From the NCBI GenBank assembly GCA_951406725.2, contig OX597830.1, positions 75,020,001 through 75,084,000 of the forward strand: DNA of 64,000 nt, read 5' to 3'. Below the pieces are notes generated by a model, which worked only from the letters and a program-made list of their open reading frames with translations, made no database searches and had not been told where the DNA came from. A program made the position numbers and the translations under genes. Position 1 is the stretch's first letter. Each line of letters starts with the position of its first letter. Of this stretch, positions 18,707 to 55,636 are shown in pieces. Source of the stretch: Octopus vulgaris (lineage: Eukaryota).

Positions 18707-18836
<130 letters not shown>

Positions 18837-18869
18837 TGAGTTTAACGCAGGTGTAATCAAATATTTTTA

Positions 18870-18953
18870 CTTTCGACAAATGGTTCGAAAATTCCACTAA
18901 TACTATTCAAAAGAATAAATGGTATAAACAATGCAATCTTCTCCTCAGGAAAG
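18870..18953 (-). ncRNA. Hammerhead ribozyme family 2 (core mutated GAAA>GAAC)
   Basis: CUUUC-CUGAGGA-GAAGAUU...AAUUUUC-GAAC-CAUUUG-UC^GAAAG. Confidence 0.7.
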
Positions 18954-19136
18954 TGAAAATAGCGAAACTCGTCAATAAGACATTTTAGCAAAGAATGATG
19001 GATTTGTATAGCGATAGACAGAACGCTATTAATATTGTTTAAAAAAACGTTATATGATATAACGTCATAAGTAGCTAACAGAAAGAGTAGGGATACCAAT
19101 AGTGAATGTTAAATATAAAGGAAATTAAAGTTTAAA

Positions 19137-19937
19137 TTATATATAATGATAGAGACTACTTATATGCACTAAATGTATGTTTTTGCCAATGCTTACATCC
19201 GTATGCTCCACGTTTACTAGAGTATTTTTAAAAAAAATAATGAATAATAGCTCAGAATTGCAGAGGAGACAGAATTCCTTGCCTTTGTCATATGGTATCG
19301 AAATTGAGAGAATCAACCATTCTAAATGAAATTGTTCATTGTGGTCTTTTAAATCCCAAATCAGTTTGCTGAGACCGGTACTATTACGTTTATTTCTATC
19401 CCTAAATGTTGAGTAATGGATAGAAATTCTTTTAGAAAACTCTAACGATGTGCTTCCAATATAAAATCGTACTTTATTACGAGTACTGATTATACACTGG
19501 TATATAGAATTTTTAATCTTAGAGTTACTTGACATAAACTTAATTCTATTGGAATTGACTTCAGATACAATAACCTTGTTATTAATATTTCTAGAGGGTT
19601 GGATGATATTAGCTAAATTAATGTTAGTATTAGTAAATGTATCAATATTTACCAGTTTGTTAATATGTGAAGAGATAATTTGCAAGAGAATTTTTGTGTT
19701 TGAAAAACCTATCCTAACCTTATGTGAATTGATAATAGAGTAATATCTAGAATTGTTTGGAAAATTCCTAGCAATAGCTTGACGAAACAGCAGTGGGAGA
19801 TTAGATTTAATTTGTCTCCCGTAAGGAATTATTAACCAAATATTTTTACTAGTATTCATAGCGTAATTACTTTTGAAGGTGTTATATTTACTTTTAGATC
19901 GATAATAGGGGATTAAATAAGGGTTATCTGCCTTCAT
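19137..19937 (-). pseudogene. PLE C-terminal fragment: post-RT region plus GIY-YIG endonuclease (Naiad-like)
   Basis: NIWLIIPY...NFPNNSRYYSIINSHKVRIGFS...IISSHINKL, then SIYQC...FYIGST...KRISIH...TGLSKLIWDLK...W.IL...CLLCNSE. The end is frameshifted relative to the inverted copy (..REYRCKH). Confidence 0.85.
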
Positions 19938-20433
19938 TCGCTTTGTATCGGTGCGTAAGTTATGTTTGTTATCAATAATTCTTTTACGACTAGAAATCTT
20001 ATCTACATTATTGAATTTACAATTAGACTGAGCAGAATCAATGTAGAAAATTTAGAATGGTTGATTCTCTCAATTTCGATACCATATGACAAAGGCAAGG
20101 AATTCTGTCTTCTCTGCAATTCTGAGCTATTATTCATTATTTTTTCTAAAAATACTCTAGTAAACACGGTTATAGAGCGAGAATACAGATGTAAGCATTG
20201 GCAAAAAATAACATTTAGTGCATATAAGTAGTCTCTATCATTATATATAATTTAAACTTTAATTTCATTTATATTTAACATTCACTATTGGTATCCCTAC
20301 TCTTTCTGTTAGCTACTTATGACGTTATATCATATAACGTTTTTTTAAACAATATTAATAGCGTTCTGTCTATCGTTATACAAATCCATCATTTTTTGCT
20401 AAAATGTCTTATTGGCGAGTTTCGCTTTTTTCA

Positions 20434-20517
20434 CTTTCCTGAGGAGAAGATTGCATTGTTTATACCATTTATTCTTTTGAATAGTATTAGTGGAATTTTC
20501 GAAACATGTGTCAAAAG
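20434..20517 (+). ncRNA. Hammerhead ribozyme family 2 (intact core, helix I mismatch)
   Basis: CUUUC-CUGAGGA-GAAGAUU...AAUUUUC-GAAA-CAUGUG-UC^AAAAG. Confidence 0.8.
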
Positions 20518-20715
20518 TAAAAATATTTGATTACAGCTGCGTTAAACTCCATTTATTTATTCATATATTATTCAAAATATTCAATGTAAACACGAAGTTT
20601 CTACCTTTATAAACAAGGAGTTACAACATCTTTACTCGTGAGATTTTTGCTACCCTGGTAACTATTTATTTTTTTTTTCCGTGTTAATTGTTAACAAGGT
20701 AAAAATACACTCATC

Positions 20716-34755: not shown

Positions 34756-35116
34756 TATATATATATTGTCTGTTCTCTGAAACCCACCCATCCACAAACA
34801 CAATCACGCACACACATACACACACACACATTAATGCCGTTATATACAGTCACACACACAGACACTCACTCACAAAAAGAAATTCACCATTCATTTGAAC
34901 TGCACCCTTTCACCTTCCTATTCTTATGCCTCTCTTCTCCTACTTCGTTTGAACCCTTGAACCTTTAGAACCTTCTAGATTCTTCTACATCCAACCATTT
35001 TGACGTCACTCCTTATAAAGGAATTGTTTAAAGAGACACTCATTTACACTATGGGCTCCGTGTGAACAGTCATCTAAAAGTTTTTGTGCATCTTGATGTT
35101 GACATAAGTTCATTGC

Positions 35117-35199
35117 TTTTCCTGATGAGAAAGCGGCATAATATACTCCTTATTCCTTCGCAATTAGGAATATGCAGCCTTCGAAACATATGTCGAAAA
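35117..35199 (+). ncRNA. Type I hammerhead ribozyme family 2, all core nucleotides canonical
   Basis: UUUUC-CUGAUGA-GAAAGCGGCAUA...UAUGCAGCCUUC-GAAA-CAUAUG-UC^GAAAA; predicted cleavage after 35194. Confidence 0.88.
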
Positions 35200-35247
35200 T
35201 AAAGGAATTTTGTTAATTCGTCGTTCAACTACATTCTTTCATATATT

Positions 35248-35319
<72 letters not shown>

Positions 35320-46430: not shown

Positions 46431-46810
46431 TAATAATTAAAAAAAAAAAACAATACGAAGAATGGTGAATTACATATCTTTTACTACATAATTTGTAATC
46501 CATTATTCACTTCATATGAGTTAGCGTTCCTTAAACAATTATATGTTAATTCTGAACTTAAGTTGATCCATAAATAATCGGCTACAGTAGTATATTAAGA
46601 AAGAAAATCAACATAGCTCACCCTACGCAGAGCGACCATGTTCGGAAGATTGTAGACCATAGAAATATTTGAATACTGAATTCGGTTAAATATAAACCAA
46701 TTTAAGTGTTATGTCAAAACATCATGGTATTAAATAACCGTAAATCAACTGAAACCCGCGTAAATATATATATGTATATATATATGTGTGTGTGAGTGTG
46801 TGTGTGTGTG

Positions 46811-47683
46811 TATGTGCCTGATCAATAAGTATCCAAATTGTTGCCATAGTAACGAGGTCAAAGCACGCAGACTGAAGCCGTTTAGCACAGATTGACCTTG
46901 AGCTCAGCTGTGCATGCCCACTAAGTTTTAACGTTCTAGCTCACTTCCACTGGTTACAGCTGTGCTAGGAAGGAAGGTGTGTAGCGTGTGATCGTCGCCC
47001 TGACCATGACAGAGAAAGTTTTCATGGTGATACCTGCTCAGAGGCCTACGCACAGTTGCAGAAAGTGTACAGAGAGGAGTGCATGAGCGTATGAGTGGAT
47101 CAGACGTTTCCGAGATGGCCGAAAACATGTCGATATTGACGATCGTTTTCGGAGACCCGCAAACAGCAGAACCGAGAAAAACATTGCAGATGTTCATGCA
47201 ACTTTGAGGAGAAATCGTCGAATCACCATCCGTGGGCTATCAGCGGACGCTCAGATTAGTTACGGTTGTGTTCAGTTCACTATCATCGAAGATCTGGGTA
47301 TGAGACGCGTGTCTTCCGAATTTGTGCCGAAACTGCTTTCAGCCGACCACAACGGCACTCAAGATTTCCTTGATTGTGTCGAGTATGATGAAAACATTTT
47401 CAAAATTTTGCGTGTGCCTCTGAGGAGGTATCGCCAAGCTTTTGGCGAAATTTGGTGCATAGTCTCTACTTAACTTTCCCTTTCATGGTCAATGCCATGA
47501 TCACACGCTAAACACCTTTCTTCCAAGCACTGCTGTAAGCAGCGGAAGTGAGATAAGAAAATTAAAACTTAGTGTAAGTACACAGAAGAATTCCAGGTCA
47601 ATCTATGCCAAGCGAATTCTCTGTGTGTGCTTTAGCTTCATTGATATGGCAAGAGTCCTGATGTTTATTGAACAGACCACGTA
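46811..47683 (+). mobile_element. Internally deleted mariner with ~210-bp TIRs
   Basis: 46811-47020 is the diverged reverse complement of 47472-47683; TA at both ends; internal RRITIRGLS..ISYG.VQ.II.EDLGMRRVS.EFVPKLL (HTH plus WVPHEL-like motif). Confidence 0.88.
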
Positions 47684-47789: not shown

Positions 47790-47826
<37 letters not shown>

Positions 47827-47829
47827 GAT

Positions 47830-48212
47830 AAATGAATTATCTTATTACGGATAATTCAAATGATAACCGATACCTGGGTAGCAAAAATCACAACAGAAAA
47901 AGCACGGTTGAAGTTACGACCATGGGGCATAAAAACCGTGCCTTAGTGCGGAAATTTGAAGTTTTATATATTAAGTGTAGGAAAAAATGGAGTTGAACGA
48001 AGATTTAACAAAATTCTTTATATTATTTTCTACATATGTTTCGAAGGCTGCAAAGTCCCTAATTCGGATTGAATAAGGAGTCCATTTTGCAGCTTTCTCT
48101 TCAGCTGCAAAATGGACTCCTTATTCAATCCGAATTAGGGACTTTGCAGCCTTCGAAACATATGTAGAAAATAATATAAAGGAATTTTGTTAAATCTTCG
48201 TTCAGCTCCTAC

Positions 48213-48216
<4 letters not shown>
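47830..48216 (-). mobile_element. Fold-back PLE-derived element 1 with a ~105-bp near-perfect palindrome
   Basis: Arms 47989-48094 and 48103-48209 around an 8-nt spacer; minus strand has CUGAAGA-GAAAGCUGCAAA...UUUGCAGCCUUC-GAAA-CAUAUG-UA^GAAAA (48026-48104). Confidence 0.85.
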
Positions 48217-48283
<67 letters not shown>

Positions 48284-48299
48284 ATATATTTAAATAGGT

Positions 48300-48718
48300 G
48301 AATGAATGATCCTAGTATGGATAATTCGGTTAATCGATACCTGGGTAGCAAATTCACGTCAGAAAACACGGTTGAAGCTACGTGCCAAGGGCAGAAACCC
48401 CGTGTTCTTGTGTGGAAATTTGTGTGTTTTTTTATATGAATAAATGAAAGAATGGAGTCGAACTAAGATTTTAACAAAATTCCTTTACTCTCAACACATG
48501 TTTCGAAGACTGCATACTCTTAATTCCGAAGGAATAAAGGGTGCATTATGCCGTCTTCTCACCAGGAAAGACAAGGAACCTCTATCAGCCTCAAGACGAA
48601 CAAAAACCTTTTGATGACTGCCTACATGGTGTCCACAGTGATAATGCCGTCTTCGAAACATGTGTTGAGAGTAAAGGAATTTTGTTAAAATCTTAGTTCG
48701 ACTCCATTCTTTCATTTA

Positions 48719-48726
<8 letters not shown>
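48300..48726 (-). mobile_element. Fold-back PLE-derived element 2 with ~78-bp perfect inverted arms
   Basis: Arms 48433-48510 and 48649-48726; 48300-48480 is homologous to 47830-48020; HHR at 48488-48570 (minus) reads CUUUC-CUGGUGA-GAAGACGGCAUA...UAUGCAGUCUUC-GAAA-CAUGUG-UU^GAGAG. Confidence 0.85.
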
Positions 48727-48779
<53 letters not shown>

Positions 48780-50296
48780 ATTTATATATATATAAATATA
48801 TATATATATGTATGTGAGTGTGTGTGTATACATATACGTATGTATGTGTATATAAACGTTTGTGTATTTGTGGATGGTGGTATGCGTGCTTTATGTTGCT
48901 TTTCTTGCTTATATCTTTATACTGGAGGATTAAAATTTTCTCCACATTAACAAAAATATAAACTTCTAAAAAGAAGACTCCTTAAAACTTTCATTTCGTT
49001 TCCATATTTCCTATATTCTCTTACAGAATATTTATTTGCTGCAATACGCATTGAGGTCCGTTGCTGTCACTAGAACTTATTTGTCTTATATTCTGAACGG
49101 AATACGTCTTGTAGCAATTTCTTTTCCTTTATTTTTTATAAACATTTATGAACGAATAATTCAGGATTTTCAGTCCGTTAGCAACAACTTAGCAGTTAAA
49201 GTGTTATTCTGTTTTATAGGATACCCAGAGGAATTGTTGAGAAATACGAAACATCCTAAACGAAATTTTAAAACTGGGGTACTGTTTTTCCTTTTTTTTT
49301 TTGAAGATTCCTGAATGTATATATATATATAAATATATATATACATATACATGCACATATGGGAATACGTACATACGAACACATATATGGCGGTATTTTA
49401 AATGTGTTTGAATGTGTGAATGTATACTTAATTTTTCAGAGGTAATAAAAGGACCAACGTGAACGCGACATGTGTGCTTGAATGTGACTAGAAATACATG
49501 AATGTATACACACGTGTGCATGTATGCATATATATGACTTCATATGGATTTATACCGCCATATGTTTTACTATGTACGTATTTACGTACGTGCATGTGAA
49601 TATATTTATATATATATGTGTGTGAGTATGTATATTTACATGTGTATATTTGTATGTATATATATATATGCATACGTATATATATATATATATACACACT
49701 ATTACAATACAATAGTATAATTTTCCAGCGATGAGCCTTGTAAAGATTGAATTACATAGCATCGTTATTGGATATTGACTGCTATTTCCAGCAAATATTA
49801 GTGCCTTGTTGTGTCACTATTTCCTGTCTATAATTCAACCTTTACTGTGCTTATCCTGGAAAATAATACTATGGTATCGTAATAACATTTATAAATTTTT
49901 ATGTAAATCTATTCACTGATCTCCGCCTCGTTTACAGGTTGGTCTATCAGCCTAGTGCACAGGCATTGATGTAACGGACGTTTTAAATTTTGCCTTAGGT
50001 TAACCTAGCTATAAAAGACTAACCTCATTTGCGATAATAGACTTATTCTGGAATGGCAGAAACTTGAGTACTAGGTTGTTCATTTTGCAGGCGTTTCTCC
50101 TAGACGTAAGACGAACATTTTTTTATGTTCGCCTCCCCCACACATTTTTGCATCTATACATTCAGTGAAGCTTCACATAGTGTTGCACAGTTATCGAGCG
50201 CTATTTCCAGCAAACATTGGTGCCTTCTTGTGCTACTATTTTCTACTCACACACACACACACGCACACACACACACACACACGCACACGCACACGC

Positions 50297-54964: not shown

Positions 54965-55394
54965 TAAATAGAAAGACAACAAATACGAATGAAGACGGGG
55001 AAAGAAAGAACAAAAACGTATTTAAAAAAAGTAGATAAAAACTGCAGGTGACAGTCGATTAAATTATGATCAAAGGTGCTTAGAGACAGCTTTTACGATA
55101 TAGCTGTCGTTGATGTTGTTGTTGTTGTTGTTGTGGATGCTCTTCAAGGTTTTGAATCTGGTCAGTCACACTTTTTGCTCATCTCAACTTAACATTATTC
55201 AAGTAAATATGCACCCATGTATGAAATCTAGGGCTCACACATACATATATATGTAAATAAATAAACACCCAGGTAAGTACGCAGAGATGATGAGAGACAG
55301 TCAGGATTAGGCAAATGTTTTCACATATATGTGAACACACTGTACTCTCCTATCGTAAACGACAGGTGAGAGTACAGCGATTTCCTGTTATTCA

Positions 55395-55636
55395 AATTCT
55401 TTTACTTCCGACACATGTTTCGAAGATATTTACTTGTATTATTCCAAAGGAATGAAATGGTGTAAAACAATGTAATCTTCTCTTCAGGGTAATGAAGAAA
55501 TGAAACTCGTCAATAAGACATTTTAACAGAATAAGATGGATATATATATCGTGATTAACTGAACGCTATTAAGTTTCTTTCAAAAAACGTTATAGGATAT
55601 AACGTCAGAGGTAGCCTATGGAAAGAGGAGGGATAA

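Follow-up and report, generated by a model that had tools for sequence, protein, structure and literature searches.

Two inverted insertions in one (TA)n tract

The window, that is, the whole 64,000-nucleotide stretch of Octopus vulgaris DNA analysed here, carries two neighbouring fold-back elements, E1 and E2, which are separate 5′-truncated insertions of two subfamilies (A and B, respectively) in one shared (TA)n tract. Position 0 of the element numbering is the C that opens the hammerhead core. E1 is flanked on the left by the (TA)n tract that forms its target (47793-47823). Its long arm (47823-48104, minus strand; positions 0 to +282), whose junction was mapped, stops at the tail site s2 and is 98.6% identical to a natural copy (L110). 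The tail itself (about +141 to +282; 47823-47963, minus strand) belongs to the long arm only; in full-length copies it forms the leader before the open reading frame (ORF), and in L115, L128 and L196 a tail of the E1 type continues into the ORF. The E1 short arm (48103-48224, plus strand; +10 to +140), which carries a 9-nt deletion and a 1-nt length difference, ends at a TA motif, s1, and runs into the (TA)n/(TATG)n tract common to both insertions (48217-48289). The long arm of E2 (48290-48646, minus strand; -81 to +272) spans from an upstream breakpoint hotspot to s2, and its short arm (48644-48726, plus strand; +50 to +132) begins within helix II, on its 3′ strand, and ends at s1. A (TA)n tract at 48722-48813 forms the right flank and target of E2.

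Each element contains an inversion of its own, as had been proposed from the letters alone. The alignment of the E1 arms (47965-48090 versus 48107-48224) has 115 matching and 2 mismatching positions, a single-nucleotide indel and another of 9 nt, and the E2 arms (48433-48515 versus 48644-48726) match at 82 of 83 positions, 78 of them consecutive as the sequence-only reading had stated, with the single difference at 48648. The arms are also closer to each other (115/117 plus two indels, and 82/83) than the two elements are (74-80% identity). That reading correctly took E1 and E2 for diverged tandem members of one family, but its description of the family as non-coding fails, since longer copies enter an ORF for a reverse transcriptase (RT) and a GIY-YIG domain. 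It had further described E1 as a palindrome with arms of about 105 bp turning at the hammerhead core. The pairing does reach the tip GCAGCT-ttctcttc-AGCTGC and the junction does lie at the core, but the arm measures about 120 bp and the 6-bp stem of the tip did not exist beforehand: family sequence upstream of the core reads TTTTC, so the stem is a product of the inversion, and the prior homology amounts to 2 nt (AG, 48103-48104) rather than to helix II pairing. At this junction (48095-48104), which comprises an unpaired 8-nt centre and the AG, position 0, the initial base of the core, is joined to +10.

In E2, position -81 is joined to +50 over a 3-nt microhomology (ATG, 48644-48646). The short arm begins with ATGCCGTCTTC at 48644-48654, and the identical 11 letters occur at 48548-48558, in agreement with the earlier observation that the second arm restarts on a helix II copy. 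The supposedly unrelated spacer, however, turns out to be the element's own upstream sequence (48566-48646); the native upstream portion of the pseudo-LTR is placed at 48566-48643 on the minus strand and is 95-98% identical to other copies.

A motif scan places one type I hammerhead core in each element, both on the minus strand, at 48104 (CUGAAGA) and at 48565 (CUGGUGA); an Rfam scan of the window at the gathering threshold gave 0 matches. The E1 motif (48031-48104), delineated by scan and fold, comprises CUGAAGA, a long helix II, GAAA, a minimal helix III (C-AUAU-G) and UA, and is predicted to be inactive because truncation has removed the 5′ strand of helix I. The E2 motif (48493-48570) includes helix I and is likely impaired, as its core CUGGUGA departs from the CUGAUGA of the family (86 of 90 arms). 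A second hammerhead within the E2 spacer was considered and rejected, the family reading otherwise there and the folding being no better than that of shuffled sequences (z -0.16). The C at 48648 makes the second arm of E2 a perfect copy of the complement of the helix II 5′ strand; on the E2 haplotype this allele is carried by 3 of 115 B arms. A plain allele of subfamily B2 is an insufficient explanation, the arm being B1 at +72 and its partner having A. A template jump on helix II is a plausible origin of this C, and a point mutation may also have produced it.

E1, a near-symmetric pair, is younger than E2, a nested pair (0.5% against 2.2% from the nearest copy), and both are ordinary dead copies. 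Given transcription, both are predicted to fold into long duplexes, a property that would hold for inverted copies family-wide rather than being specific to these two. Their adjacency was dropped as a special feature: about 10 close neighbours occur among the 336 insertions sampled from the genome (see below), 4 of them an A beside a B, a frequency expected from the shared TA target.

Elsewhere in the window, a comparable insertion, older and more diverged, lies at 18816-20700, with 519-bp inverted arms (18819-19327 and 20050-20568) that are 94% alike, ORF remnants in between, a hammerhead motif at 20439 and a tail confined to the right arm. More diverged family ends are found at 34990-35257, a sense s1 arm with an intact core that ends in (TA)n, and at 55394-55462. 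A stretch at about 46810-47680, flanked by microsatellites, resembles a decayed transposase gene of mariner type.

A Hydra-like Penelope-like element

The source of E1 and E2 is a Hydra-like Penelope-like retrotransposon (PLE) that encodes an RT with a C-terminal GIY-YIG domain and inserts in (TA)n, which upholds the hammerhead-bearing PLE origin first proposed for them. Longer copies (L196, L239 and L010) extend into a single RT and GIY-YIG frame, upstream of the pseudo-LTR. The encoded protein has 198 homologues, with RT/GIY-YIG annotations among them, and a Pfam scan of three translated frames returned no significant family. Its motifs include DKT, a CxxC before a conserved E (CALC..E), a CxH after a conserved N (N..CPH/CLH), and RWF where the Hydra clade has RWK. 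The CxCX5C linker is found in 0 of 10 family copies versus 7 of 7 aligned homologues, an Asn-rich stretch taking its place, and it is for want of this linker that we file the family as Hydra-like rather than as a member of the clade. The missing zinc-finger linker, which has been tied to (TA)n targeting, is absent from both subfamilies (L196, L239, L010, L067, L074 and five more copies), and targeting is still strict: in the first set of loci (TA)n adjoins both outer ends in 134 of 141 pairs and at least one side in all 141. The TA motif at s1 may itself be the means of targeting, via base pairing.

Exact patterns match 159 and 726 times for subfamily B, and 654 and 369 times for subfamily A, in the 2.8-Gb genome. 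The hammerhead core is intact in 108 of 116 A arms and in 86 of 90 B arms, and helix II is paired in both subfamilies. A partial tandem arrangement of pseudo-LTRs is present in L271 and L272; the former (G000:C6:75421000-75430999) is a full-length subfamily A copy broken up by about 5.7 kb of other sequence. A GT..AG stretch resembling a 67-nt intron crosses s2 (about +232 to +298 in L115 and L128; 47824-47872 on the minus strand of the window), its donor lying inside the 22-nt block that is best conserved between the subfamilies. No spliced joint of this stretch was found in four contig sets presumed to be RNA, which cover the family's pseudo-LTR and the beginning of its ORF and do not show start site, strand or splicing.

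The family resembles the Hydra clade of C-terminal EN+ PLEs, which includes Hydra-1_Obim of Octopus bimaculoides (PMC8557442), in the order of RT and GIY-YIG, in its DKT and CxxC/CxH motifs, in its (TA)n target and in its canonical hammerhead near the 3′ end. It differs from the clade as described there by RWF, by the absent CxCX5C linker and by a unit of about 3.7 kb against less than 3 kb. Four words taken from the octopus family, two of DNA and two of peptide sequence, were not found in the searched part of the PMC8557442 supplement, so that it is apparently another family than Hydra-1_Obim. The motifs are of type I, and their long helix II and minimal palindromic helix III are features shared with the minimal hammerheads known from pseudo-LTRs of PLEs and from animal retrozymes (PMC4209133; bioRxiv 10.64898/2026.07.22.740005); unlike the retrozymes of these reports, which occur in tandem arrays, the octopus copies are dispersed truncated insertions, single or inverted, and no tandem retrozyme array was found in the window or at the sampled loci. 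In Schistosoma, hammerhead pairs have been described on opposite strands 100-700 bp apart (PMC4209133).

End polarity and arm geometry of head-to-head pairs

Family copies were collected by exact-match patterns on the first contigs, a sample that leans toward young copies. Altogether 364 loci were fetched and 362 used, with L271 and L274 serving for structure only, and these were merged to 322 stretches. Repeated events in three loci were removed as duplicates; L230 (in inverted orientation), L191 and L167+L168 are local duplicates with identical junctions. The resulting 336 distinct insertions comprise 191 head-to-head pairs, 138 insertions without a partner arm of at least 25 nt and 7 cut at a stretch edge. 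With pairs making up 191 of 336 insertions, inverted duplication is not peculiar to E1 and E2.

Arms end at two sites. Site s1 (+140 in A, +132 in B) is the internal TA motif, which merges into the target, and s2 (+290 in A, +272 in B) is the end of the tail, about 150 nt further 3′. Among the 191 pairs, 187 combine s1 with s2, one has s1 at both ends, none has s2 at both ends, and in three one arm ends elsewhere. The combination recurs in 47 of 48 pairs of the later set, which was fetched once the idea had been formed, and very short partners show the opposite end type in 10 of 11 cases.

This polarity bears on whether the palindromes might have been produced by fold-back errors in long-read sequencing or in the assembly. 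Neither junction of the window was bridged by contigs of four other runs among the 32 of about 5800 pieces listed, as an artefact would have it. However, the arms differ by substitutions and by a 9-nt deletion, the second arm terminates at s1, a site common to the family, instead of continuing through tail and flank, 187 pairs follow the same rule, and contigs of the four other runs do contain joints of an antisense long arm to a sense short arm. We consider the chance of an artefact negligible.

The 187 s1+s2 pairs fall into 51 whose arms share no sequence, 42 with overlapping but non-nested arms, 49 nested and 45 near-symmetric ones (within 15 nt). In 93 of the 187 the arms are not nested and one arm is therefore not a simple copy of the other, which disposes of simple self-priming on one cDNA, as originally envisaged, for these pairs. 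Near-symmetric pairs exceed the expectation from independent truncation 3-4 times (27 versus 7.5 in A, 18 versus 6.5 in B). Within 100 overlapping pairs the two arms concur at 1194 of 1239 polymorphic sites, whereas 536 differences would be expected between insertions; both arms thus come from one RNA or from one source copy. Two different source copies per pair, a candidate in the same comparison, were not seen. A mixed-subfamily pair would have proved two templates; none occurs among the pairs compared. Junctions differ from copy to copy, and no shared terminal inverted structure spreading as a unit, in the manner of a MITE or hairpin family, was found. That each sampled pair has its own junction speaks for dead-on-arrival copies over a spreading hairpin family.

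Palindromes undergo centre deletion, and a cDNA primed at s2 might fold back, be copied to s1 and be joined or cut onto the second target end, the palindrome centre then being trimmed quickly and one-sidedly. Such a sequence of events would account for the polarity, the shared haplotypes and the near-symmetric excess (45 of 187 pairs, E1 included), and it combines steps proposed before, namely self-priming as a source of the palindromes at PLE junctions (PMC3846280) and endonuclease resolution in connection with the tail (PMC8557442). However, it needs a second event in 93 of 187 pairs, with some one-sided losses of more than 1 kb (L010, L113 and L196), and it predicts more symmetric pairs among young copies, whereas symmetric and asymmetric pairs do not differ in age (p 0.53 and 0.96; 32/45 in the youngest thirds). 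A fast one-sided deletion soon after insertion would escape this age test. Other observations are also awkward for it: in L132, L187, L268 and L231 the s1 arm reaches the upstream hotspot at -70 to -82 while the s2 arm has only 45-130 nt, the junction insert of L147 derives from the beginning of the ORF, which neither arm includes, and solo arms ending at s1 occur (38 of 89 solos). On balance, fold-back followed by deletion appears rather unlikely, although it retains appreciable weight.

Junctions, breakpoint hotspots and the role of the hammerhead

Among the 120 insert-free junctions, 77 show a microhomology of at least 2 nt, compared with 17.5% in the null. The other 71 junctions carry inserts, and about half of the 18 inserts of at least 9 nt are copied from the element. 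Breakpoints were tested on 444 pattern-ascertained arms using left-truncated rates, with +93 to +240 and -50 to -1 as background. Since the bins were picked after the first data had been seen, the loci fetched afterwards (the later set) provide the fair test.

The sequence-only reading had made the ribozyme helix the general fold point, helix II or the core serving self-priming or template switching to yield hairpin retroelements. The two window elements fit this proposal, E1 being joined at the core and E2 restarting on helix II, where the C at 48648 adds to the match. Helix II strand-to-strand junctions recur in L160 and L236 (2 of 191 pairs; 6 and 12 nt of homology), stuttered helix II pieces are present in L046 and L079, arms end on the core and helix II strands 1.61 times as often as in the background (p 0.006; A 1.94, B 1.34), and the interval +73 to +92, on helix I (3′ strand) immediately beyond the predicted cut, is enriched 2.29-fold (p 4e-6; A 2.97, B 1.55) and again in the later set (1.95, p 0.035). 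However, the breakpoint map, which had been put forward as a check that could refute the proposal, gives 1.29 times background for the hammerhead body (0 to +72; p 0.06) and 0.85 in the later set, where core and helix II strands fall to 0.95; of the 444 arms, 47 end on these strands. An initial comparison with -50 to -1 alone as background gave 1.04 for the body. In addition, the E1 stem is a product built on 2 nt of prior homology, the E2 spacer is native, and under haplotype-aware mapping the ends are not sharply concentrated at the cleavage site. We therefore judge the hammerhead highly improbable as the general fold point of the family.

Two more specific candidates did not survive. Exact run-off at the cleavage site lost ground when haplotype-aware mapping weakened the peak at +74, 3 of 41 A ends lying at the site and 7 at 8 nt beyond it, and a coupling of both arms within +69 to +92 in subfamily A (12 pairs versus 2.3 expected) was absent in B and in the later set. 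Separately, the junctions of L046+L047 and L079 have inserts built from short, recurring copies of the helix II 5′ strand, with L046 containing about four units of 18 nt, a pattern like that of reiterative template jumping.

The strongest hotspot lies upstream of the ribozyme, at -86 to -60 (4.17-fold, p 2e-15; 3.96 in the later set). It adjoins candidate promoter-like words in both subfamilies, which we take to be TATA-like and initiator-like, and judging from the DNA it would most simply reflect cDNA run-off at the transcription start. The ribozyme affects a minority of junctions, mainly on its 3′ side, whether by a stall at helix I, by run-off at a trimmed cut end or by AT-rich homology. 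At most junctions the hammerhead is a passenger, and in some it may have slowed the enzyme or supplied a cut RNA end.

Proposed double priming and its relation to known systems

Inversion in the course of reverse transcription and insertion, as first proposed, stands as the most likely origin of the pairs. The probable route, in our assessment, is that both cut target strands prime reverse transcription of the element RNA, one at s1 and one at s2, and that the two cDNAs are then joined by microhomology. The target would be cut and one strand would prime at the internal TA motif s1, the other priming at s2, about 150 nt further 3′; the two cDNA ends would finally be joined through a few bases of microhomology. 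The template could be a single RNA or a pair of RNAs derived from one source copy. The end of the E2 long arm in the -86 to -60 hotspot would correspond to run-off at the transcription start, and near-symmetric pairs such as E1 would arise where a shared RNA end or obstacle halts both cDNAs or, in a minority, by true fold-back. Because it supposes two cDNAs, one per start site, double priming covers all geometry classes as well as the end polarity. Against it stands the 3-4 times excess of near-symmetric pairs, as fold-back would yield, and E1 and E2 are both nested, so that neither alone requires it. The 138 of 336 insertions that lack a partner arm of at least 25 nt likewise count against it.

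A stricter version, which we consider slightly less likely than not, would make polarised twin priming obligatory: one enzyme pair would copy one RNA onto both target strands from two fixed starts, the inverted pseudo-LTRs and the tail would be a single product, and most cDNAs would run off the 5′ end or stop at the ribozyme cut end or helix I. If true, this would constitute genomic evidence for a hammerhead acting on its template in vivo.

In twin priming of L1, the second target strand primes internally on the RNA, which gives rise to an inversion with microhomology at the junction; the internal site is variable and the two pieces scarcely overlap. The octopus family is unlike L1 in that both sites are fixed and the same stretch of RNA is often copied twice.

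The pair in the window represents an already known kind of PLE insertion. What appears new is the strict end polarity, the non-nested arms and the tail of 140-150 nt, counted here on 191 pairs; in the literature covered, older reviews lying outside it, we found neither a count of PLE tail polarity nor a proposal of twin priming for PLEs. Owing to the long tail the two ends can be told apart, and more than a thousand young copies form a natural data set. The origin of tandem and inverted PLE insertions and of their one-sided tail has been named an open question (PMC8557442), and the steps after first-strand synthesis were left unvalidated in the in vitro study of the Poseidon PLE protein (PMC11167929). 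The strict polarity rule and the arms that are not nested speak for double priming rather than for the self-priming suggested in the literature, and they lead to direct predictions for the in vitro assay.

The protein of the Poseidon element PAc cuts and extends both target strands in vitro, uses two adjacent RNA starts that define the tail, is predicted to form a dimer and does not need hammerhead cleavage (Frangieh et al. 2024, PMC11167929). The octopus insertions agree with this system in that both strands are cut and extended under the double-priming reading, two internal RT starts bound the tail and the target is AT-rich. They differ in that the PAc starts are few to tens of bases apart, lack homology to the target and serve both strands alike, whereas the octopus starts lie about 150 nt apart, the TA motif at s1 matches the target and each insertion uses both sites, once each. 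The strict s1+s2 polarity is thus unexplained by the in vitro results considered, where both strands used the same start sites (PMC11167929).

PLE insertions have been described before as including an inverted 5′-truncated copy and a tail of 30-40 bp on one side (PMC8557442 Fig. 2; PMC3846280). Consistent with these descriptions, which include Penelope of Adineta vaga (PMC3846280), the octopus pairs show a head-to-head copy, a one-sided tail, junction palindromes or microhomology and Asn-rich inserts in the ORF. They depart from them in the length of the tail, which at 140-150 nt exposes arms that do not overlap.
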